A DNA stretch of 44,648 bases, taken from Acidobacteriota bacterium (GTDB taxonomy: Bacteria > Acidobacteriota > CAIWXX01). Shown piece after piece: positions 613 through 26,605 of this stretch. The translations under genes and the position numbers were made by a program. The DNA lies in NCBI GenBank assembly GCA_040755995.1, contig JBFMAF010000039.1, forward strand, positions 1-44,648. The letters are read 5' to 3'. Position 1 is the first letter of the stretch. The number at the start of each line of letters is the position of its first letter. A model generated the notes under the pieces. The model saw nothing but the letters and a program-made list of their open reading frames with translations, had not been told where the DNA came from and searched no databases.

Positions 613-2991
613 TCAATTCCTCTCTGGCTTCTCATGGCCCGCAGAGACGCGAATCTCAATCGCCACCCATGGCCCGACGCCATCGTCTGTTCCGGCACGG
701 GCCTTCTCCACAAGTTGCCGGTCGGAGTCACCCGTCCAGAGGCCCACCACATCGTGCACGAGAAAAGATGGAAGATCCTTCGCGGCACGAATGAGCACTG
801 GAACTGGCACTGTGCTCGTACTCTGGGCGGCAAGGACATCCTGGACGAACCTGGCAGGCACGATGAGGGGCGCGGGCGCCAGCTCAGTGTTGAACATGAA
901 CATATAGTGGGAGTGTTCAGAGACTTTGAGTAGCGCGTCCAGCTGAGTGGTGTCTATGGGTACCGACCCCTCCCACCCTTGTGACCAATTCTTTTTCCAC
1001 AGAGATTTGGCCTGTATCAATGTCACGTGGGCAGCCTGAGCGAGCCCCGGAACCTCGCAGTCGAAGATCAGTCCAAGGTCGGCACGCGTGCCAGAGGGGC
1101 CGCCTTCGCCAGCTGCGCCGCCTTTTTGCCTGACCTGAAACCGTCGCACGGAGAGACTGATGGATATCGGAGGAGTGCGCCGGTCGGAGAGCCACTCCTT
1201 GATTGTCTTGTTCGTGTCTTCGAGGTGACGCACCATTGTCGCGGCCAAGTGGAACACCGGCTCGTGTTCGTAGTGGCCACCCCAATGGTTGAAGGTGTGC
1301 CCGAATTCCTTGCACGCAACATCCACCGCACCTCGCCATAGAGACTCGACTCCGATGTCGCCAAGCCACGTCTGACTTCGATCCCGGGGAACCCGGCTGC
1401 GCGACACCTCGATCAGATTCTCGACTGCATCCAACAAGCCCGACCCGCCTACCGATGGCCGGCCTTCCCCAGTGAGCGGTTCACCCTTCAAGTGGCGGAG
1501 CAGCACCTCCGCATGGAAGCGCTTCGTGTGGGGTCCATTCTTGTGCTCCGCGACGTACTCAGACAGCGCCCTAGCGACGGATTTCCTCGGCAGGCCGAGG
1601 ACGATTGGGTCGAGTTGATTCCAATGATTCTCGGCGAGGTCAAGGATGCCGCGTACTGCAACGGGGACCGCTTCCCGTTGCTTCTTGAGAGCTTCGACCG
1701 CGGCCCCTTGTCTCACAGCAGCCTCTCGGAGATCGAGCCTTCGCCCGTAGTACCCGCGAGACTCCATCTCGAGTAGGCTCATGATTGCCCGAAAGAACTC
1801 TATCCAAGCTCGACGCCTGGCATGCACTTTGTTCCAAGCTTCCTCCTGCATGCGGTCATGATGGCGCATGTGATCCATTCTGAACGGTTGGTGGAGCAAG
1901 TAGTCCTCCAGGGAGCCAATCCGCGCGTCAAGGTCTGCACCAAAGAGCGGTTCATTGCGGGTGTTGGACTGCGCGTGGAGGAAATACCACGCGAACGCGA
2001 ACTCATCCTCGGGAACAAGGTAACCTGCCCAGAGACGGAATGACTCTCGACGGTGGTCCTCGACCAGCGGGTTCAGGTCCGTGCAGAACTCTCTCATAAG
2101 CCGGCTTGCCGCCCGACTCGGGAATTGACACTGACGCAGTACCCGAAGACGATCGCGCTTGGAGAAGAACTCTCCTTTCTGAAGAGCGGCCAGGACCAGT
2201 CTCTCCACCTCGGTGTTCTCAGCCAGCTGCTGCTCTGGGATCGGATCGAGGAAGTGCATCAATAGTGCCTCGTAGGGCATCTCCAGGCCTTGCTCCAGTG
2301 TGAGCCGTAACAGCCGGGCCGTGCTTTCAGCGTCGAGGCCCAATGCGTCTCCGAGCAGTCTCAATGCCTCATCTCTCCGGTCCTTGATGCGCCGGAGCAA
2401 GGCTGACAAGCTCTCGCGTGCATGCTTGGGCAGCTCGTTCCAACCGAGGAGCCTCTTGCGCAGTTCGAGTACTGGCACTTCGAGCCCGCCAGTGACCAGG
2501 CACGTCCCGCCTTCGAATCGCACAATATCGGGATGATACAGCGCCACTCCCAGAAGGGTGACAGGATAGTATGAGATCGCATCCACCAAGTTCTGCCGCA
2601 AGTTGTCTAGGGACTCCCTTACTATAGGCGACTCGCTCCGGCTCGCATTACCGTGAAGGTTGGCTATGCCGGCACAGAGCCGGACAGCTTTCCCCGACAG
2701 TTGGTCGTACCAGATCCATCTGCTGAGGCCAGCACTCGCGATTCTCGATAGGAAGACCAAGACCGGCAAAGATAACCCCTCCTGAGAGGGAGCAATGAGA
2801 CTTCTAAACTCCTCAATTGTGGCCTGATCGGCGGGAGATACTGGCAGCATATTAACGAGTTCATCATGCCCCTCCTGATCCCCAGTCCAGGCTCTCTGAA
2901 AGGTCTGTCTCCAGCTGTGTACCCATGCATGCACTTGGCATGTCGGGCACTCCCGTACCTCGGAAAAGAGTTCTTCGATCTCGGTGTTCAT
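613..2991 (-). CDS. 792-aa protein with an unrecognised N-terminal region and a putative C-terminal PD-(D/E)XK-type nuclease domain
   Basis: Long ORF; C-terminal HEP...ADLGLIF...LIQAK pattern fits E..D..QxK restriction-like nucleases; ends 3 nt before the UvrD ATG. Confidence 0.7.
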   Translation of the reverse strand: MNTEIEELFSEVRECPTCQVHAWVHSWRQTFQRAWTGDQEGHDELVNMLPVSPADQATIEEFRSLIAPSQEGLSLPVLVFLSRIASAGLSRWIWYDQLSGKAVRLCAGIANLHGNASRSESPIVRESLDNLRQNLVDAISYYPVTLLGVALYHPDIVRFEGGTCLVTGGLEVPVLELRKRLLGWNELPKHARESLSALLRRIKDRRDEALRLLGDALGLDAESTARLLRLTLEQGLEMPYEALLMHFLDPIPEQQLAENTEVERLVLAALQKGEFFSKRDRLRVLRQCQFPSRAASRLMREFCTDLNPLVEDHRRESFRLWAGYLVPEDEFAFAWYFLHAQSNTRNEPLFGADLDARIGSLEDYLLHQPFRMDHMRHHDRMQEEAWNKVHARRRAWIEFFRAIMSLLEMESRGYYGRRLDLREAAVRQGAAVEALKKQREAVPVAVRGILDLAENHWNQLDPIVLGLPRKSVARALSEYVAEHKNGPHTKRFHAEVLLRHLKGEPLTGEGRPSVGGSGLLDAVENLIEVSRSRVPRDRSQTWLGDIGVESLWRGAVDVACKEFGHTFNHWGGHYEHEPVFHLAATMVRHLEDTNKTIKEWLSDRRTPPISISLSVRRFQVRQKGGAAGEGGPSGTRADLGLIFDCEVPGLAQAAHVTLIQAKSLWKKNWSQGWEGSVPIDTTQLDALLKVSEHSHYMFMFNTELAPAPLIVPARFVQDVLAAQSTSTVPVPVLIRAAKDLPSFLVHDVVGLWTGDSDRQLVEKARAGTDDGVGPWVAIEIRVSAGHEKPERN

Positions 2992-3079
2992 AGTGACTTA
3001 CCCAACCTCGCTGGGAGAGGACGCCATGCTCATATAGCCGTTCAAACGCTCGGTGATCATAGTGGCTTTACCCTCGCGA

Positions 3080-3475
3080 TCACTCTGGTCCTTCCTTCCA
3101 CAGCACCGCTCTTCCTGCCTCCGTCAACCGGTAATGCTGCCTGCTGCTCCGAGGCTTGTCGGGGATCGTGCGCTCTAGCCAGCCTCGTGCGAGTAGCGGT
3201 CGCAGGTAGGACCGCAGGAAGTGGACACGGTCGCTCAATCCTGCGGCACGTTGGAGGGCCTCAGCGCTGACAGCCTGCCTTGAGGCCTGCAAGATCGCTA
3301 CAACTTGCGCGGCGACTTGTGGGGTTGTTCTCGTGAGCCCCAGTACATCTACGCTGGATCGCACGACTGCGGCGCCAGCGACTTCCTCGAATTCGCGTGG
3401 CCGAATCCCCGCGGCCCCGCGCATCTCGATGAGGCGGTTGGTACCGCGACCCCGGACTTCCCCGGTCGGGTTCAT
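3080..3475 (-). pseudogene. Orphan C-terminal module 3 of the AlbA_2-HATPase gene, with a Fic-like C-terminal wHTH
   Basis: Begins MNPTGEVRGRGTNRLIEM (homologous to AVEVWGRGTNRVIAM of 4266..5735); ends HFLRSYLRPLL...TIPDKPRSSRQHYRLT. Confidence 0.75.
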
Positions 3476-3889
3476 CCTACAACCTCCCGGTGTCCGCCCT
3501 TGTCGGGGCCGATGCGGCGAAGCACACCCCTGTGTTTCAGCCTCCGCATGTTCCACTCGATCCCCGGGGCGTCAAACCGGTAGGTTGAGATAGGCTCAAC
3601 CGTGGCAACGAAAGGACTGCTACGCACCATGACCAGGATTTTCTCCCTAGGTTTCTCCCTACTCTTTCTCCACAGTCTTCTCCCCACTGTTCTCCCTACT
3701 CTTCCCCCTTGTCTCCTTCTCGCCATGCGCCTCACAATCTGGTCTCTCTCCCAGAACCATCTGCGCCTTGAATGTGACGATCACGAATCCCGACCGCTCC
3801 TCGACGGTCAGTGGCGCCGCTCCGTGCTTCGTGCACATCGCCATCACCTGGTTGGTGCTGCGGCCCCAGAGCTCCACAGTCGTGGTCAT
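3472..3889 (-). pseudogene. Orphan C-terminal module 2 of the AlbA_2-HATPase gene, frameshifted
   Basis: 3659..3889 encodes VELWGRSTNQVMAMCTKHG...FKAQMV and 3472..3735 encodes ...IGPDKGGHREVVG; the frames are offset by a 1-nt insertion in a 12-bp repeat tract near 3660. Confidence 0.8.
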
Positions 3890-4269
3890 CCCACAACCTC
3901 GCAGTGCCCATCCTTGTCCGGGCCGGTTCGATTCAAGAGACCTTGTTCCTTGAGATTGCGAAGATGCTTTTTCACGGCACGATCGCTGATTCCAAGCTCG
4001 AGTGACAGCCTTTCAATCGTAATGGATGGCTGCTGTCGAATCAGGTCGATGATTTCCTGGGTACTCTTCTGGGAACCTTTCTGGGAACTATTCTGGGTAG
4101 CCTCCTGTGACCCTTCATTCAATAGGCTCCCCTTCACCATCTGCGCCCTGAACGTGACCATCAGGCATCCCGAGCGCTCCTCGAAGGTGGGCAAAGCCAC
4201 CTCGTGGTTCTTGCACATGGCGGTCACCGGGTCGCTGCCGCGGTCCCAGACTTCCGCGGTCCTCTTCAT
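3886..4269 (-). CDS. Orphan C-terminal module 1 of the AlbA_2-HATPase gene (127 aa, wHTH), frame intact
   Basis: AEVWDRGSDPVTAMCKNH...FEERSG...FRAQMV, then wHTH (ITIERLSLELGISDRAVKKHL) ending GPDKDGHCEVVG; ATGA overlap with the upstream stop. Confidence 0.75.
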   Translation of the reverse strand: MKRTAEVWDRGSDPVTAMCKNHEVALPTFEERSGCLMVTFRAQMVKGSLLNEGSQEATQNSSQKGSQKSTQEIIDLIRQQPSITIERLSLELGISDRAVKKHLRNLKEQGLLNRTGPDKDGHCEVVG

Positions 4270-5735
4270 CCTACAACCTCCCAGCGCCCACCCTTGTCGG
4301 GGCCGATGCGTTTTAGACGGCCGTCGTGCTTCAGACCACGGATGATCTTCTCGACTCCGGCTTGACTCAGTCCCAAGCCTTCCATCATCTCTCGCGTGGT
4401 CATCTCCGGGTCCCCCGCCACCAAGGCTAGAAGTTTCTCCCTACTTTTCTCCTTACTCTTCTCCCTACTTCTCTCCACAGTTTTCTCCGCAGGCAGCTTC
4501 TCGACCTCTTGGATGGATGCGCCGATGTCGCGCCCCTGAACCATCCGCGCCTTGAACGTGACGATCAGAAATCCCGACCGCTCCTCGAAGGTGGGCGGAG
4601 GCGCCCCGTGCTTCTTGCACATGGCGATCACCCGGTTGGTGCCGCGGCCCCAGACCTCCACTGCGCCAATCCGGTGAAACGCGCCGGCGATCAACGGATT
4701 GACCGGTTTCGAGTCGTGCTTTCCTGACAGTTGCTCTACCGTGATTCCGGTCGGAAGGCGGCCGTAGCTGCGAATCTCGATCCGGTCGTCGAAGACCACT
4801 ATGGCGACGTAGCCCGAGTAGTGAGAGTAATCGCGGTGCATCACCGCGTTGAGCAGGATTTCGCGCAACGCGTCCGGAGGAACAGGGAAGCGATCCTCCC
4901 GGAGGATCTGGCCGGTGGGAAACCGCGCGCCGAGCGGCATCGTTCGTTCGAGAAAAGCCATGCCCTCGCGCACCGTGGCGAAGGCATTCATGTGCTCCTG
5001 CCGGTTGTCTACGATCTCGCCCGTGATTTCGGTACCCCGGAACCGGCCCATCTTGATGAGGCATTGGGGGTAGTCCGGTAGAAACCTCTTTCCGTATAGG
5101 ACAAAGGCGGCCTGCGTGAGGACGCCCGCCACCCGCAATCCCAGCCGGTCGAGAATCTCCCCGATGTCGCGGCTCGCATCCGGCGAGATCCGGTTCTGCT
5201 GGATGGCCAGCTCCCGTGTGCGCAGGATCTCCTTGCGGTCCAGGTCCTTCAGCGCCAGCCCCTCCGTGGGAAGGTTTTCCCAGCGGCGTTTGGCGTGGCC
5301 GCGCTCAACGAGCAGCCGCTCGTATTTGGCCTGGGGCATACGGCGCGTCGTGCTTCCCACGCGCTCGTACGCGCGGCCTTCGCATGTGAACGGCCTCGCA
5401 TCCAGACTGTCTTCGACAGATACTGCGACAACCTCGCGTCCGGCCCTTGCCTTCACGCGCTTGATGGAAACATGGGCGGGAGGTTCGAAGCGGTCTGTGG
5501 CCTGCGCGATCTCACGGATCGTTTGGTCGGTCACCTCCTGGCCTCGGGCGGTAGCGTCGGGCCCCACGCCGAAAAGCACCGTGCCGCCGGAACCGTTCAG
5601 GAAGGCGCAGAGCGTTTGCATGCCTTCCTTCATCTCGCCTGTGGAACGTTTGAACTCCAGAGTCAGGCCTTCGCCTTTCCGAAGGAGCGCCGCTAGCTGC
5701 TTTGCGTTCGCGGGAACACCACCAATCTCGGTCAT
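4266..5735 (-). CDS. AlbA_2/Schlafen + HATPase_c_4 (RecG-C-like) + wHTH protein
   Basis: GEGLTLEFKRS and CAFLNGSGGTVLFGV (AlbA_2); ALREILLNAVMHRDY and EVWGRG (HATPase_c_4); C-terminal wHTH ending IGPDKGGRWEV. Confidence 0.9.
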   Translation of the reverse strand: MTEIGGVPANAKQLAALLRKGEGLTLEFKRSTGEMKEGMQTLCAFLNGSGGTVLFGVGPDATARGQEVTDQTIREIAQATDRFEPPAHVSIKRVKARAGREVVAVSVEDSLDARPFTCEGRAYERVGSTTRRMPQAKYERLLVERGHAKRRWENLPTEGLALKDLDRKEILRTRELAIQQNRISPDASRDIGEILDRLGLRVAGVLTQAAFVLYGKRFLPDYPQCLIKMGRFRGTEITGEIVDNRQEHMNAFATVREGMAFLERTMPLGARFPTGQILREDRFPVPPDALREILLNAVMHRDYSHYSGYVAIVVFDDRIEIRSYGRLPTGITVEQLSGKHDSKPVNPLIAGAFHRIGAVEVWGRGTNRVIAMCKKHGAPPPTFEERSGFLIVTFKARMVQGRDIGASIQEVEKLPAEKTVERSREKSKEKSREKLLALVAGDPEMTTREMMEGLGLSQAGVEKIIRGLKHDGRLKRIGPDKGGRWEVVG

Positions 5736-5929
5736 TGAGGCGTCCTTCCATACGGCCCGGAATCTTCCCTCACCGTCATCGGCCTGGTCATCGCGTTCAT
5801 TTCCAGCCAGTAGTGCTGCACCCTGGATACCTCGTGCCGCTCGAAGCGGGCTGGGTCGCGGATCGGCTCCTGGAGCGTGGGGCTCGTAGCACAGTTCGTG
5901 ACGACGTAGAGCCAGTCCTTAGGGATCAT
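5732..5929 (-). pseudogene. Chimeric 65-aa ORF: MIPKD start fused to a copy of the SNF2 helicase C-terminus
   Basis: Residues from WLYVVTNCATSP onward match the end of 10080..13532; GAGGA RBS before ATG 5929. Confidence 0.85.
5763..5916. repeat. 154-bp direct repeat of 10108..10261 (helicase 3' end)
   Basis: Manual ungapped alignment, 8 mismatches in 154. Confidence 0.95.
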
Positions 5930-5959
5930 GTGTGTGTCCTCATCTGTCGTGGTCCTGCC

Positions 5960-8263
5960 TCAAGCCCCGCCTACCAGCCGGAGCGTGCGCTTCACATAGC
6001 CGTGTAACTCATCCTCGTTGATCGGTTCCGAGTCGGCATTCACGTTCTGGTCGTGGTGATATTTCTTCGAGTAGCCGTTTATGGCATCCAGTTCGTCGAG
6101 ATCGGCCTTGGCGTGCTGCAAGCCGCTCGTCGCGTCCGCCATCGGTATCCTCTTGATGAAGTCACCGAGCCATTCGTTCGGCTGAAAATGCCCAGGGAAA
6201 TGGATTCTCAACAAGCCTTCCAGAAAGGGCCGCATCGTTCTTGCGACTGCGCGGGGATCGCCCTTTCTCTCCGTATGAAATCCGAGCAGCGTCGAATAGT
6301 CCTTCATGTAGCTGCTCTGAGCTTCCGCCTGGATGTCCCATTCGCCGATTACGGTGGTGTCCCCTGCCTTGCTCATCTGAAGGGCCTTTACGGTGGTGCT
6401 GGCGCAGGGGCATTCATCGGAGAGCAACTTGAGGAAGAGCGGGTCGTGTGAAAGCACCAGGACCTGCTCGGCAGAGTCCGAAAGCCGCTGGATCCGTTGC
6501 TGGGTGCATGTCCGGCGGAAGCGGTCAAGGCTGGTGAACGGGTCGTCCAACACGACGATTTTCCTCCCGATGTCAGCATCCTGCTTCAGTACGGCGAGGA
6601 AGAAGGCCAACGCCAAGGAGCTCCGGTCACCGGAACTCAGAGCAGTCTTGAAGCAGGGCGTCCCAGGCGGAGTACGAGTGTCACCGAGGTCAATGGCGGT
6701 GTCGTTGATTTCGATTTGGTACTGGGAACTCGGCGTCCCCCCCGTATAGAGATGCCGCGTGTTCTTGATGCGGAATCCAGCATTGAACTGGTCAAGGTAA
6801 TGATTGATGGACTGCTCGTATGCCCTGAGAATATCGCGACAGTGCTGGTCGAGCTGCTGGCGGACGGCGACCTTCGTTTGTTCAAGACTCGCCTTCGCAG
6901 TCACGGCGTCCTGGTACGCCTGGCAAACTTGGATGACCTCCGGGTCAAAGCGCCTTTTCCGCGCCTCCAGTTGGGTCAACGCGTTCTTGAGCGTTACGAT
7001 CTCGCCTTCCCTTTGTGCGGCGGCCTTCTGCGCACTTACCACCGAGTTCGCGGCGTCCACTGCCCTGTTGTATGCAGCGAGGCTGTTCCGAAGGGCGTCC
7101 AGCTCTCCAAGCGCAGTGGTGAAGTCCGAATCTGGCGTGACCGCTTCGGGCGGGCTATCCTGCTTCTTCCGGGCGAGCGCGAAGCAGCGCTCCCGCAGCG
7201 TTCTGTACTTCTGCTGGATCTCCGAGAAGGAGACGAGAGGCAGGTCAACCGCGGTAAACCGCCTCCAGAACTCGGCAAGGGCTCCGTTGCCCGCAATTGC
7301 CTGCTGAGCGGGAGAAAGAGATGCCTCGCCAATCGCCTTGTCGAGGCGCTCGCTCAATTGGGCAACCTCCTGTTTGAGGCTCCGGTACGCGGCGTTGAAG
7401 TGAGAACGATAGGCTGCAACCAGCTCGTTTCCGCAAACCCCCTGTCCACAGAATGGGCAGCAGTCGTCCTTGACGTAGCCCAAGCCCTGAGACAGCCACG
7501 ACTCGCCTTGGTGCCCCATCCGGTGTTCAGCAATCTGTCGACGCACTTTCTTTTCCGCATCGGCCACGATATCTGTCAGTTGCTTGGCCAAGATCGCGGC
7601 GAAATCCGGAGGCAAGCAGGGGAGCTCTATCTTCGCGAACAGGCCCTTGGCCTTGATCTCGCCGGACTTAGCCGCGGCCCGTTGCCGGTTGTCCAATTCC
7701 TCAGTCTTGAGTTGAATCTGCGCTTCGATGTCGCCGATCTGTTGCCACTGAAGGTAATCATCAATCTCGGTTCCCGGTGGTACATGTCGGGAAACAGCAT
7801 CCCTCTTGGTGCGCACCTCGGCACTTGCATCCCGGACCTGCCCATCCAGTTCTTCAATCTGCCTTGCGAACTGCACGCCTTGGGCGCCGACGATGACGTG
7901 GTACAGGTTCTTCTTGTGCTCGTGCTCCACGTACTCCCCCGAATAGACGTTATCGTTCACGAACACGGAGTCGAAAATGGCGATGTCAGGAAACGTCGCT
8001 GTCCATGCGTCGTTCGCGAATCTCAGGTTGTCGCCATTCATGCGCAAGTGTGCAAGGGGTGGGTCTGTGGCGCCCAAGGTCTTCCGCTCCCGGATGAAAT
8101 CTGCCTGACCGCTCAGGAGCGAGCGCAGGATTGCACAAAGGGTGGTCTTCCCTCGACCATTCTCCGCATAGATGAGCGTGAGCTTACGGAAGCTCACGTC
8201 GCCGCTTGCAGCGTAGTTCCGAAAGCGACCGATGTTCTTGATCTGAATTATCTTCTCAAGCAT
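5960..8263 (-). CDS. RloC-like ABC/SMC ATPase (AAA_13) with zinc hook and putative C-terminal HEPN-type nuclease
   Basis: MLEKIIQIKNIGRF start after GAGG; Walker A YAENGRGKTT; coiled coil with CPFC; signature LSSGDR; Walker B VVLDDP; H-loop LSH; C-terminal RPFLE...SKKYHH. Confidence 0.85.
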   Translation of the reverse strand: MLEKIIQIKNIGRFRNYAASGDVSFRKLTLIYAENGRGKTTLCAILRSLLSGQADFIRERKTLGATDPPLAHLRMNGDNLRFANDAWTATFPDIAIFDSVFVNDNVYSGEYVEHEHKKNLYHVIVGAQGVQFARQIEELDGQVRDASAEVRTKRDAVSRHVPPGTEIDDYLQWQQIGDIEAQIQLKTEELDNRQRAAAKSGEIKAKGLFAKIELPCLPPDFAAILAKQLTDIVADAEKKVRRQIAEHRMGHQGESWLSQGLGYVKDDCCPFCGQGVCGNELVAAYRSHFNAAYRSLKQEVAQLSERLDKAIGEASLSPAQQAIAGNGALAEFWRRFTAVDLPLVSFSEIQQKYRTLRERCFALARKKQDSPPEAVTPDSDFTTALGELDALRNSLAAYNRAVDAANSVVSAQKAAAQREGEIVTLKNALTQLEARKRRFDPEVIQVCQAYQDAVTAKASLEQTKVAVRQQLDQHCRDILRAYEQSINHYLDQFNAGFRIKNTRHLYTGGTPSSQYQIEINDTAIDLGDTRTPPGTPCFKTALSSGDRSSLALAFFLAVLKQDADIGRKIVVLDDPFTSLDRFRRTCTQQRIQRLSDSAEQVLVLSHDPLFLKLLSDECPCASTTVKALQMSKAGDTTVIGEWDIQAEAQSSYMKDYSTLLGFHTERKGDPRAVARTMRPFLEGLLRIHFPGHFQPNEWLGDFIKRIPMADATSGLQHAKADLDELDAINGYSKKYHHDQNVNADSEPINEDELHGYVKRTLRLVGGA

Positions 8264-8811
8264 GACCTCTCTCCACCTCACCTTGTCTCTGGGAGGCAGG
8301 TCTTGACCGTCAAACTGGCCATCCCGGTTCCGCCGTGGTGAACCCAGGCATGCGTGTCACCTGGATGACACTGCCTGCAAGTCAGCGGGTCAGGCACAGC
8401 TTCCATGCTCATTCAACCGCCTTCCCCAGCGGCCCCATGTCTGAATCGGTTGCAGAGGCTCGCAAGATCGGCGACTGGTGGCAGCGGCATCAGCACGGCC
8501 TGCCGGCTGACGGTTTGGGATTGAGTCCACTCGCGGCGGCGCTTCTCGCGGGTGCGGATACCCGCCTGTGGGCCTGGAGATCGTTGCGGGCGTACAGGCG
8601 CGTTCTCCTGCTTCAACCGGCGGCACATACCGCCAGGAGCGGCAGCACATGCTACCAGATAACTCATACCCTGCCTTCCAGTCGGGTCCATAGGTGGCAC
8701 CGATTCCCGTAAATCTGGCGGTCTCCGAGCGCGGCGCCAATCCCCCCAGCGTTCTCCCGAATCGGTCGATTCTGGAGGAGCCGATTCGGTCGATCCCGGC
8801 GGCGCGATCGG

Positions 8812-10083
8812 TCAATCATCGGTCGAGCCCTTCTGGCGGCCCCAGTTCTTCTTTCGGAAGCCTCGCTTCTCCCTCGGGACAGTCCTACAAGATCCAGGAG
8901 TCTCCCCCTGCGCCTGACGAAGTGCCCTCACCCTCCGCATTCCCAAAGCATACCGAGTCCGTTCAATCTCGCCAGCGAGAATGTCCTCATCTGGAAGAGC
9001 GGTCTTATATTCGGACGCCAGCACCTTGTTCGCAAGGCCCTCCAGCGCGTAATGGACAACAGCCTCGTCCTTCTGGGCGCACAGAATGAGTCCTACAGGC
9101 GGGTTCTCCCCTTCGTGCATCCAGTGTTCTCGGGCGTAGTTTAGATACAAGTGCATCTGGCCGGCCTCGGCATGGGTGAACTTGCCGATCTTCAAGTCGA
9201 TGACCACCAGACACCGCAACCGTCGATGGAAGAAGAGAAGATCAATCCGGTACCACTCCTCGCCAATGCGCAGCCGTCTCTGCCTGCCAATGAAGCAGAA
9301 GTCACCTCCAAGCTCCAGAAGGAACGTCTCGAGGTGCCGGATGAGCGCCTCTTCCAGATCGCTCTCGGAATACTCATCCTTGAGGCCGAGGAACTCCAGG
9401 ACGTACGGGTCCTTGATCTGTTCCTCAGGGGTAACAGCGTCTTCCGGCAGGGACTTCTGGCCCTTCACCAGCATAGCGGCCTTGTTCCTGGAAAGGGCCG
9501 TCCGTTGGTAGAACTGCGACTCGATCTGTCGGGCCAGTTGGCGGACTGACCAGCCTCCGCGCAGGGCTTCAGCTTCATAGAATGCCCTGGCCTGCCCCGA
9601 GGGGCTGCGCCTTACCAGCAGAACGTAATGAGACCATGATAGTGGGAGGGCAGCAGCGAGAGATGTGAGATCCGTGGTCCCAGACAGCACTTCGGATTTT
9701 CCGGACGGTGTATGGAGTTTCTCACCCGTCGGCGCCAGAGACGATTTTCCAGACACTGTCTGGAGTATCCCTGCATAAGCCAGGTAGAAAGCCCGCATGT
9801 CGAACAGGTTGCTCTTGCCGAACCCGCGTCCAAACCTGGCAGATAAATCCGTGGCGAGTTGTTCGATCAGTTCTTCGCCGTACGCTGCACGTGCACCGCC
9901 CCCTTGCTCGTGCTCGACGACTCGACGCCCTATGAGCCAGTAGGCTGCCGTCATGACGGAGTTGACCGATCGCGCAACCGACCGCCTCGCCGTATGGATG
10001 ACATCACACAGCTCGCCGAGGATCGATGCGTAGTCCCTGTCGTTCACCTTGCTTCGTCTGGTCGGACGGTTCCTTGGCATCAC
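8812..10083 (-). CDS. DUF1016/YhcG-family PD-(D/E)XK nuclease
   Basis: AYWLIGRRVVE, LSWSHY, WSVRQL, IKDPYVLEFL, FLLELG, IDLLFFHRRLRCLVVIDLK, GQMHLYL; start codon uncertain (GTGA overlap with helicase stop). Confidence 0.92.
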   Translation of the reverse strand: MMPRNRPTRRSKVNDRDYASILGELCDVIHTARRSVARSVNSVMTAAYWLIGRRVVEHEQGGGARAAYGEELIEQLATDLSARFGRGFGKSNLFDMRAFYLAYAGILQTVSGKSSLAPTGEKLHTPSGKSEVLSGTTDLTSLAAALPLSWSHYVLLVRRSPSGQARAFYEAEALRGGWSVRQLARQIESQFYQRTALSRNKAAMLVKGQKSLPEDAVTPEEQIKDPYVLEFLGLKDEYSESDLEEALIRHLETFLLELGGDFCFIGRQRRLRIGEEWYRIDLLFFHRRLRCLVVIDLKIGKFTHAEAGQMHLYLNYAREHWMHEGENPPVGLILCAQKDEAVVHYALEGLANKVLASEYKTALPDEDILAGEIERTRYALGMRRVRALRQAQGETPGSCRTVPREKRGFRKKNWGRQKGSTDD

Positions 10084-13000
10084 TCTAATCTCTCGTAGCG
10101 CGACTTGTCTTCCCGCACCACCATCGGCCTGGTCATCGCGTTCACTTCCAGCCAGTAGTGCTGCACCTTGGATACCTCATGCCACTCGAAGCGGGCTGGG
10201 TCGCGGATCGGCTCCTGGAGCGTGGGGCTCGTAGCACAGTTCGTGACGACGCAGAGCCAGTAACAGTCACGCCTGTCCTCGGCCACGCGACGCTCGTTGG
10301 GCGTGAGCAAAATCGTTCCCGTGGCCCCGGCCAGCCCCTTCACCTCGATGAGACGCAGCTCGCCGGAAGCCGCGTCTAGACTCGTCACATCGTAGCCGAG
10401 GTTCTTCTCGTGAACATCGTGGACCTGGCGGCCTTGCGACTTCTCGTGCTCCATCACCACCCGCATGGCAGCGGCCTCGGTCTCGAGATTCGGCTGCAGA
10501 CGTTGCACCTCCGGGGTCTCGCGCTCGGGGTGCGGCAGGACAACAACGCTCGTGATGCGTTCGACAGCTTGGAGAGAGAGGGAGCGCTGCCGCTCCAGTT
10601 CCTGCCTGCGGCGGTCGCGGCGTGCCAGCAATTCCGCGTGCCGCGTTTCCGCCTGCGACAGTCGCCCTTCCGCGCCGGGAAGCTTCCTTTCCACATCCGA
10701 CGCGGCCCTGCCGATTTCCTCGTCCGCCTTCTGGAGTAGCTCGGTGAGTGACAACTCGACATGAGACGCGATACGCTCTACCTCGGACAACCGCTCTGCG
10801 CGGGTCTCATCGAGAAACGGCCGGAAGGCGCATGCCTGAAGCCATTCGCTTGCCTCAGGCAGGAGGGCGGCAGGTGGCAGGCTTGCTGGAACCTCGGCAG
10901 GCGCGAAGTTGCCCAAGAGCCCAGGTTCGCGAAGAGCGGGTTGCTTGCCCTCGGCAAGTTCCACGGCGAAGAGGCGCTCGTGAATGATCTGCCCAAGCCC
11001 ATCGACGACGCGGGCGCGGTAGAAGTCGATGCGGCTCGGTTGGTCGTTCTGAACCGAGTAGAAGCAGGCACCCATGCTGAACGAATCGACGGCGAGCGAC
11101 GAGGTGTGCCGCCGCAGGGCCTCGAAGAGCGGATGCCCCGGTGTGACCCATTCCAATCTGTTCTTCTCCGCAATCTCACGGTCGGTCGAGCTTCGCGGGT
11201 ACTTGGAGGCGAGAGCGGGGAGCTTCCAGTCCGGCTCGCGCTCATACCGGCGAAGAGGGGACGGCGTACGACCGGGCTCAAACGTGTGCGCCAGGCTGGG
11301 GACCATTTTGAGTTCCAGCCGCGCATACTCTGCGGCCTCGCGCATGAAGCGGGCGACTGTCTCGGGCACGACACGGTGTTCCTGCGCCATGGCCCGGCGC
11401 TCGACCAGCATCGCGAGATTTAGCTTCTTGGACGCAAGTCCCTCCAGTGCATTCTGGCAGATGGCGCGGAACTGGCGCTCGTCCACGTTCTTCAGCAGGC
11501 GGTCCTCGAGGTCCGCATCGCCCAGCCTGCCGGCATAGTAGTCGCGCAGGACGCGCTCCACGTGCGCTGCGGGCAGCACCTCGCCCACGACGTTGAAGAC
11601 GGCATCGTCGTCCAAGGCGTCACGGATTTCCTGCAACTTCTCCAGGAGGCGCTGCAGAACTCGGCCCTCGATCGTGTTCGTGGCAACGAAGTTGAAGATC
11701 AGGCAGTCCTTGAGCTGGCCGTAGCGGTGGATACGGCCCATGCGCTGTTCCAGGCGATTCGGGTTCCACGGAATGTCGTAGTTGAAGAGAATGTGGCACG
11801 CCTGGAGGTTGATGCCTTCGCCCGCCGCCTCGGTGGCCACGAGCACCTGGATCGCGCCTTCGCTGAACTGCTGCTCGGCGTACAGTCGGGTGCCTCGTTC
11901 CTCTCGCGAGCCGGGCTTCATGCCGCCATGGATGTATCCGACCTTGAAGCCCCAGTCCTTGAGCTTCGCCACGAGGTAATCCAACGTATCCTTATACTCG
12001 GTGAAGACAAGCAGGCGTTGGTCTGGACGGTCGAAGAAGCCCTCGTTCTGAAGGAGTTCCTTGAGTCGGGACAACTTCGACTCGACACCAGCCTCCTCAA
12101 CGGCCTGGGCTCGAGCCGCAAGTGAGCGCAGTTCCTGCGTCTCCTCACGAACCTGGCCCGCGCTGGCCGCGAGAGTCACCGCCTCGAGCATGCCCTCGAT
12201 CCGCTCACGCTCCGCCTCCTCCATCTCCTCCATCTCTTCGGGAGACGGGAGGTCCGGCGGAGCTTGGCGCACGATTTCCTGCGCCCGCTTCAGCCCTTCT
12301 TCCAACTTGCGGGCCCGGTTCTCCAGGCTGTGGCGCACGGCATACGTGCTGGATGCGAGCCTGCGCTGGTAGAGAGACATGAGGATGCCGATCGCCCAGG
12401 CGCGGGGGTCATCGCCCTGGGCCGCGGCCCTGGCGCTCTGCTCCTTCACAAAGCGCGTGACCTCCTGGTAGAGCTTGAACTCCGGGCCGTCTATCTGGAA
12501 GTCCACGGTACGTGGGATTCGCTTGGTGAATATCTTCTCGGCCACCCAGGATCCATCGGGCTTGCGCTCTGGGAAGTACACCATGGCTTCCTTGGTGCGG
12601 CGAAGGTAGAAGGGCGCACGCCTGCGATCCATGGCTTGGCGGATCGACTGGACGTCCGCATAAGCGTCCGCGTCCAAGAGCTGAAGGAAGAGGCTGAAAT
12701 TCCCCGGGTCGCCTTTGTGTGGCGTGGCCGTCAGCAAGAGTAAGTGGTCAGACGTATCCCGTAGAAGCTCTCCGAGCTTGTATCGAAGGCTCTTGTGGGT
12801 TTCATCGGATGCGGACATCCGGTGGGCCTCGTCCACGATGGCCAGGTCCCAGTGGACCTGTCGGAGACCGGGGAGGACATCATGGCGCTTGGCAAGGTCG
12901 AGCGACGTTATGACCCGCTTCTGCTCCAGCCACTGATTCACGCCGAACTGCTCCCGGATGTCCTGTCCCTTGAGCACCAGGAACTGCTCGCCGAACTTCT

Positions 13001-13532
13001 CCCTGAGTTCCCGCTGCCACTGAAAGGCGAGGTTGGCGGGGCAGACCACGAGAATGCGCTCCGCAAGGCCCCGAAGCTCCAACTCGCGGACCAGGAGACC
13101 GGCCATGATGGTCTTCCCAGCGCCGGCGTCGTCAGCCAGGAGGAATCGCACCCGGGCGAGTTTCAGCAGATAGTCGTAGATCGCTTCCAGCTGATGGGGC
13201 AACGGATCGACTCGGGAAATGGACAGGCCGAAGTAGGGGTCGAACTCGTAGGCGATGCCGAGCGAATGTGCCTGGACGCCGAGCCGCAGCAGTTGCCCAT
13301 CGCCCGCGTATGTGAAGCTGGAATCGAGTACAGTCAGCTTCTCCAGGTCGCGAACTGTGAGCGTAACCCTGCGGAATTGCTCTGTCCGAAGGCCGACCAG
13401 TCCAACGATCAAGGTGCCGGGGCCGCCAGAGCGGACAGTCTCAACACGCATGGGCTCACTGAAGAGTGAGCCGGTGAGAACGTGTCCTTCCCGGATGGGA
13501 TGAACTTCACTGGATGGGGCGCCCTCGCTCAT
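10080..13532 (-). CDS. SNF2-family helicase with C-terminal DUF3883 (NOV-like) nuclease domain
   Basis: LLADDAGAGKT, VDEAH, LTATPH, TEAAGEGINLQ, WNPNRLEQRMGRIHRYGQ; C-terminal GYDVTS...IEVKG...LTPNE. Confidence 0.93.
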   Translation of the reverse strand: MSEGAPSSEVHPIREGHVLTGSLFSEPMRVETVRSGGPGTLIVGLVGLRTEQFRRVTLTVRDLEKLTVLDSSFTYAGDGQLLRLGVQAHSLGIAYEFDPYFGLSISRVDPLPHQLEAIYDYLLKLARVRFLLADDAGAGKTIMAGLLVRELELRGLAERILVVCPANLAFQWQRELREKFGEQFLVLKGQDIREQFGVNQWLEQKRVITSLDLAKRHDVLPGLRQVHWDLAIVDEAHRMSASDETHKSLRYKLGELLRDTSDHLLLLTATPHKGDPGNFSLFLQLLDADAYADVQSIRQAMDRRRAPFYLRRTKEAMVYFPERKPDGSWVAEKIFTKRIPRTVDFQIDGPEFKLYQEVTRFVKEQSARAAAQGDDPRAWAIGILMSLYQRRLASSTYAVRHSLENRARKLEEGLKRAQEIVRQAPPDLPSPEEMEEMEEAERERIEGMLEAVTLAASAGQVREETQELRSLAARAQAVEEAGVESKLSRLKELLQNEGFFDRPDQRLLVFTEYKDTLDYLVAKLKDWGFKVGYIHGGMKPGSREERGTRLYAEQQFSEGAIQVLVATEAAGEGINLQACHILFNYDIPWNPNRLEQRMGRIHRYGQLKDCLIFNFVATNTIEGRVLQRLLEKLQEIRDALDDDAVFNVVGEVLPAAHVERVLRDYYAGRLGDADLEDRLLKNVDERQFRAICQNALEGLASKKLNLAMLVERRAMAQEHRVVPETVARFMREAAEYARLELKMVPSLAHTFEPGRTPSPLRRYEREPDWKLPALASKYPRSSTDREIAEKNRLEWVTPGHPLFEALRRHTSSLAVDSFSMGACFYSVQNDQPSRIDFYRARVVDGLGQIIHERLFAVELAEGKQPALREPGLLGNFAPAEVPASLPPAALLPEASEWLQACAFRPFLDETRAERLSEVERIASHVELSLTELLQKADEEIGRAASDVERKLPGAEGRLSQAETRHAELLARRDRRRQELERQRSLSLQAVERITSVVVLPHPERETPEVQRLQPNLETEAAAMRVVMEHEKSQGRQVHDVHEKNLGYDVTSLDAASGELRLIEVKGLAGATGTILLTPNERRVAEDRRDCYWLCVVTNCATSPTLQEPIRDPARFEWHEVSKVQHYWLEVNAMTRPMVVREDKSRYERLE

Positions 13533-13909: not shown

Positions 13910-14254
13910 TCATTGGTAGCCCGACCACACGTCACGGAAGAGCGGCGTGATGTCCGAAGCCTCCTGCGGGCCGGTGAGAACGCGCCAGCCTTCACCGAGC
14001 ACATCCTCCAGCTCGCCCGAGATCACCGAGACGTGGCCTGGGACGATCACCGTTCGATGCGAGATTCGATCTGTGGCAGCCAGCTTGCGCAACGCCTTGC
14101 CCACGCGGTCGCCGGAGAACTTGCATGCGCCGGGCCCGTTGCATTCGGCGGAGATCGGTTCGGATGCGATCTGAGCCGCTCGGAGAATCGTAGTCTTCTC
14201 GTCCACCTGCACGCACCGGCCCGACGGCGAGAAGACGACGCGATGTTTGGTCAC
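13910..14254 (-). pseudogene. Chimera: 5' end of a 2Fe-2S/RACo (AcsV-like) gene fused in frame to a diverged copy of the acsC 3' end
   Basis: The first 44 aa (VVFSPSGRCVQVDEKTTILRAAQ...CNGPGAC) are a 2Fe-2S ferredoxin start; the remainder KFSGDRVGKAL...DVWSGY matches the AcsC C-terminus (13917-14124 vs 15543-15750). Confidence 0.85.
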
Positions 14255-14287: not shown

Positions 14288-15412
14288 TCAGAATGCGAGC
14301 TCTGCCAGGAACTCGTGAGCTGACAGCATCTCGACACCGCCGGCGCTCCTTCTACGATCGAGATCATGAACAACCTGGATCGCTCTTGCAGTCGGCAGGA
14401 AGGAGTGAAAACGAAGGAGAGAGCGCGCGAAAAGGTCATGACCGGACTTGACCTCGACCATCAACACGGGCTTGCCGTCCACGATAGCGAGGAAATCCAC
14501 CTCGTTCTTCTCCTTGTCCCGCAGGTAGTGCAGTGAAGTCCGGCTGCCTCTGGTATCCTCGACAAGATGGAGCTCCCGCAGCAAGGCGTTCGCCACCGCA
14601 TTCTCCAGCCTGGCGCCTACATCTCCCTCGACGGCGCCCGTATCATACAAGTAGTACTTCGGCTCCTTGAGTATCGACCTCGCAATGTTTCGGTGATAGG
14701 GCCTCACGGGGAAGATGACACACAGGTTCTCGAGTATCTGTAGCCAGTGCTTGACCGTGTGGACAGAGACCTGCAAGTCTTGAGCCAAGGAGCTGTACGA
14801 GGTCGGCGCCCCGACGCGGTTCCTGAGCAGGTCGATTAGAATCTCGATGGACTTCAGATCTCTGACGCTCTCCAGGTCGAGCACATCCTCGCGGATGATG
14901 GTATCGAGATGCGTGCGGCGCCAGCGAGCCGCTGCGACATCGCTCCTCTTCAGATACGGCTCTGGGAAGCCGCCGAAGCGCAGGAGGCCGGCCAGTGCCT
15001 CACGGGCCGACTCCCCAAGGAGCTCCACGCATTCCTTGACGGTCAGCGGATGAAGTCGGTAGGCATAGTAGCGTCCCGCGAGCGAATCGCCGCCTTTGCG
15101 GTAGACGTCGAGCCGCGCTGAGCCAGTCACGAGCAACCCAGGGGGTACGCCCCGAGTGTCGTACACCCCTTTGATCCACGACTTCCACTTCTTCATCTTG
15201 TGAAGCTCATCGAATATGACAAGCCCAACCTTGGTGTCCCATTCCTCCCTGTGGATCATCCGGCGGTCCGCAGCAGAGTCGTAACTGAGATACACAAAAG
15301 GCTCCACCAGCTGCTTGGAGAGCGTCGTCTTGCCCACCTGACGCGGCCCCGAAACCAGAACGAGCTTCTCCTGCAAGTCCTCCCTGATCTGCGCCTCCAG
15401 GTACCGCCGCAT
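14288..15412 (-). CDS. AAA_14 + DUF4143 ATP-binding protein
   Basis: SGPRQVGKTT, IFDELH, VTGSARL, DSLAGR, FGGFPEP, PKYYLYDTG, LEN, EVDFL...VEVKS. Confidence 0.92.
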   Translation of the reverse strand: MRRYLEAQIREDLQEKLVLVSGPRQVGKTTLSKQLVEPFVYLSYDSAADRRMIHREEWDTKVGLVIFDELHKMKKWKSWIKGVYDTRGVPPGLLVTGSARLDVYRKGGDSLAGRYYAYRLHPLTVKECVELLGESAREALAGLLRFGGFPEPYLKRSDVAAARWRRTHLDTIIREDVLDLESVRDLKSIEILIDLLRNRVGAPTSYSSLAQDLQVSVHTVKHWLQILENLCVIFPVRPYHRNIARSILKEPKYYLYDTGAVEGDVGARLENAVANALLRELHLVEDTRGSRTSLHYLRDKEKNEVDFLAIVDGKPVLMVEVKSGHDLFARSLLRFHSFLPTARAIQVVHDLDRRRSAGGVEMLSAHEFLAELAF

Positions 15413-15535: not shown

Positions 15536-16870
15536 TCACGGATACCCCGACCACACGTCGCGGAAGAAGGGCGCTATGTCGGATGCTTCCTGAGGCCCGG
15601 TTAGAACGCGCCAGCCGTGCCCTAGTGCGTCCTCGAGCTCGCCCGAGATCACCGAGACGTAGCCCGGGATTATCACCGTGTGATGCGCAACTCGATCGGT
15701 GGCACCCAGCTCGCGCAACGCCTTGCCCACGCGGTCGCCCGAAAACTTGCCCGCTGACCATGCCGTCAACACGCTCATGCCCTCGGCATCCACCACGACC
15801 AGATGCGAGGGAACACCCGTGGCCTCGATCTCCGTCGATACGATGAAGTACGTGAGCGAGAAGTTGGTGGTGACGAGCATCGGCGACTTCGGCCCGGGTT
15901 CGCCGATCGCGTAGATCCCAGGGTCCATCTGAAGCGGCTTCTGCGGATCCGTGTAGATGTTCTGGCGAAGCGTCCAGAGTGGAAGCCATGTTTCACTTGC
16001 ATCGTCCTCGATCACCAGCACCGACGCGAACTTCGTGATCCCGAGGACAGCCTTCTCAATCTCGCCCTGCCCCACCCGCAAGAACACGGGATGGCCCAGT
16101 CCCGGGTGCACCCGATCGAGTGCACCTCGGCGAATGAGCGTCAAGTCGCGGTGCAGCGCAGGTAGATCGGCCGCCGGAGGCTCAAGCAAGACGTCAGCGA
16201 CGCCGCTCTTCACTATCTCCGCAGCGCTCGATGCCAGCGCGCTCAGATCCGGCGCGGAAACCACAAGAGGGATCCCGTGCCTCGCGGCGATGCTGGCGTA
16301 TGGTCCGGGATCGGCTCCGGCGGGGGGCACCAGGAGCGGCCGGTGAGACTTCAACTTCTCAACCAGCTTTCCCGCGCCATCCGGAGTTTCCGCCAGGACG
16401 ATCGCAGGAAGCCCGTGCTTCATCGTCGCATCGGCGCATGCGAGACACTGCGCGGCTGCGCTTGGAATCTCGCGAATCGCCACACCATCCACGCGAAAGG
16501 TCTCGCCGGCCCTCTCGATACGGATCGCAGCCCAGCGGGCCACGGTCGCTTCGGGATCGGCCACCTTGGCGGGATCAAGCACGCGGAAAAGGCCGGGCTT
16601 CCGGACGAACGTCTTCTCGTGCCGGAAGAAGACCGTCTCCTCGCCCACGGTCACCGCGCGGTCGCCGCTGCCGATCGTGACCCCGCGGATCGGCGGCGCC
16701 GATGCCGCGCCGAGCGCCGCCCTGGCCTCTTCAGACGCGTCGGGGCACTTGTCGAGAGACTCCTTGCCGGCAGCCAGCTTCATCGCGAATGCCAGGCAGG
16801 TCGGATAGCCGCACTTCTTGCAGTTGGTATTCGGGAGCAGTTTGAAAATCTGCAGTCCTGTCAGCGCCAT
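15536..16870 (-). CDS. acsC: Corrinoid iron-sulfur protein large subunit (CFeSP gamma)
   Basis: MALTGLQIFKLLPNTNCKKCGYPTCLAFAMKL, FFRHEKTF, LRQNIYTDPQKP, TTNFSLTYF, SVLTAWSAGKF. Confidence 0.96.
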   Translation of the reverse strand: MALTGLQIFKLLPNTNCKKCGYPTCLAFAMKLAAGKESLDKCPDASEEARAALGAASAPPIRGVTIGSGDRAVTVGEETVFFRHEKTFVRKPGLFRVLDPAKVADPEATVARWAAIRIERAGETFRVDGVAIREIPSAAAQCLACADATMKHGLPAIVLAETPDGAGKLVEKLKSHRPLLVPPAGADPGPYASIAARHGIPLVVSAPDLSALASSAAEIVKSGVADVLLEPPAADLPALHRDLTLIRRGALDRVHPGLGHPVFLRVGQGEIEKAVLGITKFASVLVIEDDASETWLPLWTLRQNIYTDPQKPLQMDPGIYAIGEPGPKSPMLVTTNFSLTYFIVSTEIEATGVPSHLVVVDAEGMSVLTAWSAGKFSGDRVGKALRELGATDRVAHHTVIIPGYVSVISGELEDALGHGWRVLTGPQEASDIAPFFRDVWSGYP

Positions 16871-16880
16871 GCTTAACCTC

Positions 16881-17840
16881 CTACCCGCCCGCCGTCTGGG
16901 GAAACCAGACGTCTATCGTACGGCGCACGTGCGCGAGCGCATCCGGATGGCGAAGCACCAGGATGTCGGCGCCGGCGAGCAGCAACGGTGTCGCCGTCGC
17001 GATCTCCCAATGCAATCCGCGGGCGCGCTGATCGCCCCACAGAGGTTCCTTGTCAGCGGGAACCTTGGCCTCTTTCGCCTTCCACGCTTCCTCGCCGACC
17101 AGGCAGATCACGGGGCAGTTCAGCATAGTATCGCCGCCAAGCGCTGCCAGCCGGACTCGTTCCATGACCGAGTAGGTGTACTCCAGACCGTAGCCCAACC
17201 CGCCTGTCAGTGGATCGATCAAAACACGATTGAGATCGACGTTTGACTCCGAGAGCAGTATGTTGACCTGCTTGGCGATGTTGATGTCGATTGGACTCTC
17301 AGCCACGAGAACGTGCCCGTAGGCGACTGTGACCGCGGCCAGTGTGCGGAAATCTTCCTGGCAGGCCGAGTGCAGGACGAGGCCCTCTCCCGCGCATTGC
17401 TCCGCGACCCTCGAAAGCACCTCGTTCTGCTTCTGTCCGGTGCCGGGTCCCTTGACGATCAATGGAACGTCAACAGCCTTCAGCACGCCGCGGACGTCGG
17501 CCACAGCCTCGTCGGCCGTGCGGTTTCCGCGATCGGGGTGCGTGCCGACCAGGTGAAGCATCAGCAGGTCGGCGCCGAAGTCCCTCACTGCGCGCGCCGC
17601 GGCCTCGCCGGGCCGGCCGACGACGCCGTCCCACGGCTGCCGCACCGCGTCAGGCCATCGGGGTGGATCGACGTCGGTGATCTCGAGCGCGAGTGCCGGC
17701 CGGTGCGGGAACTCCGCCTCGAACGTGTGCATCGGCAGCCCGCGGCCGCCGGCCACCACCAGCGGGCGCCGCGTTCTTGCCCCCAGCGTCACTTGCCGGA
17801 TCGCTCCGGCCCATTTCTTAGGTTTCAGATTCAGACTCAC
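16881..17840 (-). CDS. acsD: Corrinoid iron-sulfur protein small subunit (CFeSP delta)
   Basis: SPIDINIAKQVN, DPLTGGLGYGLEYTYSVMERVRLAAL.GD..L, AGADILVLRHP; GTG start at 17840 overlaps the acsB stop. Confidence 0.95.
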   Translation of the reverse strand: MSLNLKPKKWAGAIRQVTLGARTRRPLVVAGGRGLPMHTFEAEFPHRPALALEITDVDPPRWPDAVRQPWDGVVGRPGEAAARAVRDFGADLLMLHLVGTHPDRGNRTADEAVADVRGVLKAVDVPLIVKGPGTGQKQNEVLSRVAEQCAGEGLVLHSACQEDFRTLAAVTVAYGHVLVAESPIDINIAKQVNILLSESNVDLNRVLIDPLTGGLGYGLEYTYSVMERVRLAALGGDTMLNCPVICLVGEEAWKAKEAKVPADKEPLWGDQRARGLHWEIATATPLLLAGADILVLRHPDALAHVRRTIDVWFPQTAGG

Positions 17841-21741: not shown

Positions 21742-21811
21742 CTCTCCGTGTCTCCGCGTCCCCGCGTCCGCTTCCTCTGGGCACATGGCGTGAATCAGAA
21801 GCAGCCCACCA

Positions 21812-23845: not shown

Positions 23846-23869
23846 GGGATGTTCCTTGTCGAAGAAGTG

Positions 23870-25395: not shown

Positions 25396-25468
25396 GCGAG
25401 CCAGTCTCCGAAATGGAATCCTCGATGTGCGTCTCGACGGTCTCTCACCTCGACTCCGTGTCTCCGCG

Positions 25469-26539: not shown

Positions 26540-26576
26540 TCTCTGCTCCAATCTTTGGATACCGACGCAGCCGGAG

Positions 26577-26605
26577 AGAATAGCCCGCAGAGTCTGGAAT
26601 GTCAA
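26577..26605 (-). promoter_or_regulatory. Sigma70-type promoter of the acs operon
   Basis: Minus strand TTGACA-17nt-TATTCT. Confidence 0.7.

Follow-up and report, generated by a model that had tools for sequence, protein, structure and literature searches.

How does a gene come to be followed by three partial copies of a 3' end like its own, each running on into a different ending? This question is raised by a stretch of 44,648 nucleotides (nt) from an Acidobacteriota bacterium (contig JBFMAF010000039.1 of assembly GCA_040755995.1; the whole stretch is called the window here). It carries a gene for a Schlafen-type protein with a GHKL ATPase domain and a C-terminal winged helix-turn-helix domain (wHTH, the 'tip'), and behind this gene stand three short modules, each of which restarts with a diverged copy of the sequence in which the GHKL coding region ends (the 'stub') and continues into a tip of its own. 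We read the array as a recombination record of C-terminal displacement, similar to that of Rhs proteins, in a Schlafen-GHKL-wHTH defence gene with crossover in the conserved GHKL end, and give this explanation a probability of about 0.64.

Three stub-plus-tip modules behind the full-length gene

The full-length gene (4266..5735, minus strand, as are the modules and the island genes and gene ends whose positions are given with two dots below) encodes 489 aa with a Schlafen/AlbA_2 RNase domain, a GHKL ATPase (HATPase_c_4), a linker of period-4 repeats and a wHTH of class A. The conserved 3' end of its GHKL coding region (4539..4661), beyond which identity within the family collapses, is the template of the stubs. 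The three modules on the 3' side of the gene (4269-3886, 3889-3472 and 3475-3080) are direct repeats that share one junction register, and they abut with no gene between them. At all three junctions the ATG of the module overlaps the preceding stop codon, exactly 7 codons ahead of the W of the EVWGRG motif. Over 123 nt the stubs of modules 1, 2 and 3 are 84%, 86% and 52% identical to the DNA of the full gene. Together with the open reading frames (ORFs) and the output of a repeat finder, these values bear out a first-pass annotation of the window, which had placed the gene and the modules at these positions and described each module as restarting with a diverged stub. It had missed the frameshift of module 2, the second subfamily in the stub of module 3, and the fact that the repeated unit takes in the wing end of the tip and the junction besides the stub.

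Module 1 (3886..4269) is an open ORF of 127 aa with a decayed stub, a repeat linker and a class-A wHTH, in which the invariant Trp of the wing is replaced. Module 2 (3472..3889) consists of a stub and a class-A tip that likewise lacks the wing Trp; it is decayed and frameshifted in its linker of 12-nt repeats (ORFs 3889-3659 and 3735-3472). Module 3 (3080..3475), an open ORF of 131 aa, joins a mosaic, decayed stub to a class-B wHTH. Modules 1 and 3 both combine a Shine-Dalgarno-like sequence with the coupled start. Pfam assigned HTH_24 to module 1 (expectation value E 8e-8) and Fic-like_C to module 3 (E 9e-20), in agreement with the earlier description of one tip as Fic-C-like, and gave no match for the ORFs of module 2.

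At the amino acid level, tip 1 shares 72% identity with the tip of P0081 and 74% with that of L023, but 36% with the resident one. The tip of P0103 matches tip 3 at 69%, and tip 3 belongs to a different Pfam class from the resident tip; tip 2 shows 56% identity to P0114 and 50% to the resident one. The window's tips have matches of 69-73% (module 2: 56%) among full-length homologues, none of them identical; this is the outcome, for the window itself, of a check suggested at first pass. Each tip is unique within the source genome, in which other, distant family members are present and no other tandem stub array was found.

The repeat unit of wing end, junction and stub spans 3756..4335, positions 3756-3955 and 4136-4335 being 75% identical, with a third copy at about 3419-3516; the repeat finder reported three copies of 200 nt and three of 98 nt, spaced 380-414 apart. 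The wing ends of the window match one another at 36-41 of 45 nt and five outside wings reach at most 36 in this small comparison. Between any two modules the longest identical run is 20 nt, and the identical stub runs available for crossover are 18, 19 and 8 nt long. Of 40 intact stubs, that of the resident gene is the nearest to the stubs of modules 1 and 2. The stub of module 3 begins with the local junction in the alignment and is then mostly derived from a second subfamily, with its nearest intact stubs at 70-72% nucleotide identity.

All three stubs are decayed. At 24 invariant columns they carry 8, 6 and 10 changes (modules 1, 2 and 3), compared with at most 2 in 119 full-length proteins; the count of 10 is inflated by the other subfamily of module 3, whose alignment still has several changes at near-invariant columns. 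A dN/dS check of the stubs, suggested at first pass, was run as the ratio of nonsynonymous to synonymous differences per site (pN/pS, simple Nei-Gojobori counts on short stretches) and yielded 1.26 for module 1 and 0.46 for module 2 relative to the resident gene, against a background median of 0.16 and a 95th percentile of 0.35. The tip of module 2 gave 0.54-0.66 with distant references.

In the full-length protein, Pfam places SLFN_AlbA_2 at residues 22-133 and HATPase_c_4 at 310-394. HTH_24 matches residues 430-469 weakly (E 0.0013, under the Pfam cut-off); despite this, the C-terminal region folds as a wHTH in the AlphaFold model (pLDDT 78, pTM 0.53), set apart by a disordered linker (401-427). 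Among solved structures 3lmm matches the model best; kinase and Schlafen structures come next, with weaker matches. The Schlafen residues E22, E27 and K29, which form the catalytic motif Ex4(E/D)xK (PMC13056530), and the GHKL residues E292 and N296 are invariant across 38 aligned sequences. With AlbA_2, a PF13749 GHKL domain and a C-terminal helix-turn-helix (HTH), the gene has the architecture termed 'Schlatpase'-HTH or pSlfn HisKinase-HTH. No NCBIfam family covers the full protein, and PADLOC gave weak partial matches only. Scanning of 2900-6100 revealed no sigma-70 promoter (shuffles 0.7) and four terminator-like sites (shuffles 2.7).

Exchange of tips and remnants at other loci

A protein search gave 1,507 relatives among 8,000 scored candidates, 120 of which, including the window's own protein, were listed and used. 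Tips of class A are present in 33 of these, class-B tips in 85 and tips of neither class in two. The mean identity to the window protein is 0.70-0.95 per 20-residue block over residues 121-400 and 0.09-0.38 thereafter. When the 118 classified proteins were compared in pairs (6,903 pairs, the two unclassified ones left out), 41 pairs had bodies at least 95% identical; the tip class differed in six and the tips were less than 50% identical in nine of these 41. P0003, for example, shares a 97% identical body with P0025-P0027 and P0032, to whose tips its own is unrelated. A FastTree tree of residues 20-345, calculated without branch support, needs 17 changes of tip class, compared with a mean of 28.9 and a minimum of 23 in 200 shuffles. 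The first-pass proposal of exchangeable tips is upheld by these pairs, by the tree and by orphan tips identical to full-length ones (see below). Judged from such comparisons, exchange of the predicted DNA-binding tip by recombination is well supported for the Schlafen-GHKL-wHTH family: core and tip are decoupled, and orphan tips recur on full genes elsewhere.

Remnants were surveyed at 56 loci from species-representative genomes, of which 41 were evaluable, with the tip complete and no less than 600 nt of sequence beyond it. Of these, seven were flagged, one of them for a second full gene, so that six have a remnant within 1 kb (L022, L046, L058, L063, L067 and L071, with L046 and L058 looking like one locus); in 34 there was no match within this distance. 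A second triple array was not among the 41 evaluable loci, and in two samples of 301 genomes, with no more than 23 candidates scored in each genome, a tandem run of at least three stubs occurred in the source genome alone, with two others (G031 and G370) carrying the gene and one short stub each. Stubs are also present at L023, which has a short flank and is outside the 41, and at the second gene of L061. Single remnants are fairly common and the triple array is rare, so that the search for similar arrays suggested at first pass succeeded for the former and returned no second example of the latter.

The stub at L023 (5281-5400) is tip-less, and its codons provide a Shine-Dalgarno-like sequence for the downstream nucleotidyltransferase gene. 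Lone stubs or stub-plus-tip remnants with no body upstream were seen at L084, L117, L118, L121 and L076. The exact wing-to-stub junction pattern was found at none of 76 loci. In viral contigs the pattern occurred in 13 stretches, no relative among them, and one full gene was present there without an orphan; nine plasmid records were all less than 60% identical.

A search for short homologues yielded 95 proteins. In ten of them (P0123, P0149, P0156, P0158, P0175, P0177, P0180, P0181, P0193 and P0214) the N-terminus of the family is fused in frame to later parts of the protein, i.e. they are internal deletions. Another 15 begin with one and the same novel N-terminus, and a DNA pattern for this start led to 13 metagenome loci, 12 real ones and one chance match. 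This second lineage presents the process in a fresh state. Its 12 loci have in common the end of the upstream gene and the junction, where the last 240 nt are mostly 90-100% identical. The loci then part at about +60-97, +155-160, +211, +415-465 and +670, in steps that lie within conserved motifs. Beyond the divergence the loci run into a tip of class A or class B, to which five of them add a second tip-only orphan. The cargo behind also differs: it can be a methylase, a PHP-ATPase or other ATPases, or else a further full Schlafen gene. The last 62 residues of 15 orphan clusters were compared with full-length proteins: four tips are identical, two match at 98% and six at 66-87%, and three clusters have no family tip. 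Three of the 12 orphans are frameshifted and one is cut short. A block of tip, second tip and PHP-ATPase stands behind a full gene in L063 and behind an orphan in L155 (89% identity over 902 nt), and L156 and L158 agree across 915 nt on separate contigs. Comparison of these loci shows that crossover in conserved motifs moves tip and cargo together.

In L148 and L150 the island of this lineage adjoins a transfer-messenger RNA gene, in L148 together with an SmpB-like ORF (by eye). The upstream Schlafen gene bears a short patch of another subfamily in five loci.

A defence island with duplicated gene ends

The genes around the array match the PADLOC models HmaA, PDC-S02, PDC-S06, PDC-S01 and GajB, and the locus is therefore regarded as a defence island. 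From this context the full-length gene is likely to encode an anti-virus enzyme.

The stop codon of an orphan 3' end of an SNF2/NOV_C helicase gene (5732..5929), which has its own in-frame start, overlaps the start of the Schlafen gene. Positions 5763-5916 of this end are 95% identical to 10108-10261 (154 nt), and the two copies bracket, as cargo, an AAA_13 ATPase gene (5960..8281, PDC-S06-like) and a gene for a DUF1016/YhcG PD-(D/E)XK nuclease (8812..10083, PDC-S02-like). The SNF2 helicase with NOV_C nuclease is encoded at 10080..13532 and has HmaA as its best PADLOC match. The first four codons of the orphan end match an N-terminus present in six of the 120 Schlafen homologues, which suggests that the start of a gene was fused to the helicase remnant. 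Orphan helicase tails were also found at L022, L052 and L061.

Similarly, an orphan 3' end of a CdhD-family gene (13917..14124) is 84% identical to 15543-15750 (208 nt), with an AAA_14/DUF4143 gene (14288-15412) between the copies. An N-terminal piece that contains Cys and resembles the start of a ferredoxin is joined to it in frame. The CdhD-family gene is the last gene of the carbon monoxide dehydrogenase/acetyl-CoA synthase (Wood-Ljungdahl) cluster (15536-26605), which lies directly upstream of the defence island. The helicase and the CdhD scars are of the same kind as the array and each bracket cargo; we therefore regard the process as a property of the island and not as a dedicated switch. 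No recombinase was matched by Pfam among the island ORFs scanned (beyond 12 kb, those of at least 150 aa), and the 25 longest inverted repeats shown include none related to the array.

Downstream of the last tip the cargo is a 792-aa gene of no known family (613..2991), behind which lies an ORF for the N-terminus of UvrD (609-106, GajB-like). The 792-aa protein has no match in Pfam, PADLOC or NCBIfam, and its Atlas neighbours are unnamed clusters at 0.92-0.96 with a low recognition score; the two genes are a possible undescribed defence pair. The UvrD ORF comprises merely 167 aa, and positions 1-127 of the window overlap the last 127 nt of contig C37 in reverse orientation (98%).

Origin of the array and comparison with known systems

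Under C-terminal displacement, the final ~120 bases coding for the GHKL domain and some short motifs of the wHTH wing, both conserved family-wide, would serve as crossover arms, and crossover at these arms would swap the tip plus the defence genes behind it. In an early event the start codons of the following gene may have been fused in frame to a stub, for which the ten N-terminus-to-C-terminus fusions among the short homologues offer a parallel. The junction would then have been copied three times, either by unequal crossover or by integration of a small excised circle of stub, tip and junction; a small circular intermediate has been proposed for Rhs (PMC2935791, PMC5361080). Copying of one junction would account for the shared register and the mutual likeness of the wing ends in the window. 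Later crossovers in stubs and wings may have brought in linkers and wHTHs from other family members. Module 3 looks as though its local junction had been linked to sequence of the second subfamily, at the very motif used for crossover in the second lineage. Stubs would drift after displacement, and the modules may perhaps have been kept open since translation through them couples the downstream operon. Seven of nine junction events seen in DNA keep an in-frame start (by eye), a weak hint at selection for translational coupling. An origin of the junction via short wing/stub microhomology was rejected, as the junctions retain the stop codon. At present the array would be chiefly a record in decay, with poor efficiency at best as a donor.

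Several observations weigh against displacement followed by decay. The pN/pS values of tip 1 (0.28 against the L023 tip) and tip 3 (0.27) equal those of intact tips (median 0.28, 26 comparisons at similar identity). Six tip-only orphans elsewhere have a pN/pS of 0.55, which is under the neutral expectation (binomial p 0.02, with no correction for transition bias) but exceeds the 0.19 of the upstream gene's tip, so that selection on them appears relaxed and not clearly neutral. A plain fossil does not predict conserved, open and coupled modules 1 and 3, unless their tips were installed recently. Tip class seems to have switched many times, yet it retains phylogenetic signal on the tree (17 changes vs 29 after shuffling). 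The exchange is deduced from comparison of loci and not from a recombination event at this locus. Moreover, the second-lineage loci (L147-L159) and the protein mosaics come from short-read metagenome assemblies and could be partly chimeric; the divergence between L063 and L155, though, is not one that identical reads would produce in a chimera.

An extended form of the displacement reading is possible but doubtful. The commonest prokaryotic Schlafen architecture would run a polymorphic-tip system, in which the GHKL end is a population-wide crossover arm swapping a wHTH sensor or regulator together with cargo; displaced tips would stay translated as RpnSs-like inhibitors or spare sensors, and arrays would be a functional memory.

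The good state of tips 1 and 3 next to decayed stubs would fit with modules that are expressed as small proteins and regulate Schlafen-GHKL enzymes or neutralise them, in the manner of the RpnSs genes, which lie downstream of rpn nucleases. The stub would then be dispensable, the repeat helix and the wHTH would do the work, and several tips would guard against several enzyme variants. All three modules have a coupled ATG, with modules 1 and 3 open. The period-4 linker recurs in 84 of the 120 homologues (control segment: 0) and runs on into the first wHTH helix of the model (H420-441); likewise, RpnS has four-residue repeats in its first helix, and the downstream RpnSs copies, homologues of Rpn antitoxins, are expressed (PMC10400941). 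We nevertheless consider this explanation unlikely. The wing Trp is gone from modules 1 and 2, the frame is broken in module 2 and in three of the 12 second-lineage orphans with a fourth cut short, and 34 of 41 loci have no match within 1 kb. Furthermore, each RpnSs copy groups with the gene upstream of it, but the tips described here are foreign to the resident gene.

Quite unlikely is a maintained reservoir, from which tips are switched under phage selection by recombination between the stubs of gene and orphans, as for the Rhs orphans of Salmonella (PMC3967940). Modules 1 and 3 do have stub and tip in one frame, so that the in-frame protein with a new wHTH foreseen by the first-pass annotation could arise from them, and identical tips are found on orphans and full genes elsewhere. 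The homology arm, however, is the most decayed part of the modules, as seen from pN/pS and the short identical runs, crossover into the frameshifted module 2 would yield no wHTH, and no second triple array was found in the 41 evaluable loci or in the two genome samples, scored for up to 23 candidates per genome. Of the 'reservoir, or historical record' proposed at first pass, it is the record that fits.

The proximity of stubs 1 and 2 and of the wing ends to the resident gene would also follow from a one-off tandem duplication of its 3' end with subsequent decay and without exchange. This very unlikely origin is largely refuted by the second-subfamily stub of module 3 and by the foreign tips 1 and 3: other genes have tips that match them at 69-72%, whereas tip 1 is 36% identical to the resident tip and tip 3 is of another Pfam class. 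An assembly artefact has a negligible probability: the array is known from assembled sequence and not from reads, but assembler duplication is unlikely for copies with no identical stretch longer than 20 bases, none of the tips recurs in the genome, and completeness and contamination of the assembly are 99.84% and 3%.

Regarding C-terminal displacement, the loci illustrate a simple mode of defence-island reshuffling, in which crossover in conserved gene ends leaves coupled remnants behind. The natural pairs of near-identical bodies with different tips are suited to testing whether the C-terminal HTH of Schlafen-GHKL proteins serves phage specificity or control of toxicity. If the orphans are merely scars, their value lies in the mechanism and in this test set. 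Neither the protein family nor the mechanism of displacement is new in itself.

In the hsdS shufflons of type I restriction-modification systems, silent alternative specificity domains lie beside one expressed gene. The first-pass analogy to hsdS does not hold for the array, whose cassettes are decayed direct repeats with no linked site-specific recombinase seen in the island ORFs scanned.

The full-length gene is of the Schlatpase-HTH type (bioRxiv 10.64898/2026.05.29.728809), with which it shares AlbA_2 (PF04326), GHKL (PF13749), a short C-terminal HTH, the Ex4ExK motif and the location in defence islands. In this survey Schlafen-GHKL proteins make up 58.6% of 103,533 prokaryotic Schlafen proteins, and the Schlatpase module is reported to be exchanged among pAgo, NACHT and type I restriction-modification partners; the HisKinase-HTH class accounts for 19.2% of 5,930 prokaryotic Schlafens (PMC13056530), and the Schlafen-GHKL architecture has been noted as cargo of BREX-related loci (PMC12839542). 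Orphan stub-tip arrays, HTH-tip exchange and defence activity of the HisKinase-HTH class do not appear in the accessible text of the published accounts, and the literature, with subscription papers and supplements little covered, gave no account of orphan tip arrays or tip exchange in the Schlafen-GHKL-wHTH family.

The Rpn/RpnS/RpnSs system (PMC10400941) resembles the locus in its N-terminal nuclease, in a variable helical C-terminus that has four-residue repeats and recurs in small copies downstream, and in a possible fusion of the N-terminal part with such a copy. RpnSs are cognate and expressed, whereas the tips of the array are foreign, carry a GHKL stub and are known from DNA.

Rhs displacement (PMC2935791, PMC3967940, PMC5361080) differs in several respects. 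The variable tip here is a wHTH, with the predicted toxic domain in the conserved N-terminus; compared with Rhs/CdiA, there is neither an immunity gene per module nor a trough of low GC content; the stubs are 52-86% identical, where those of Rhs are nearly the same; and a coupled start codon is present in all modules. The layout is nonetheless Rhs-like, as the first-pass annotation had recognised: partial cores in direct orientation repeat the conserved core end in front of dissimilar tips, other genes carry tips that match at about 70% or more, frameshifts occur in some of the fragments, and core and tip are decoupled.

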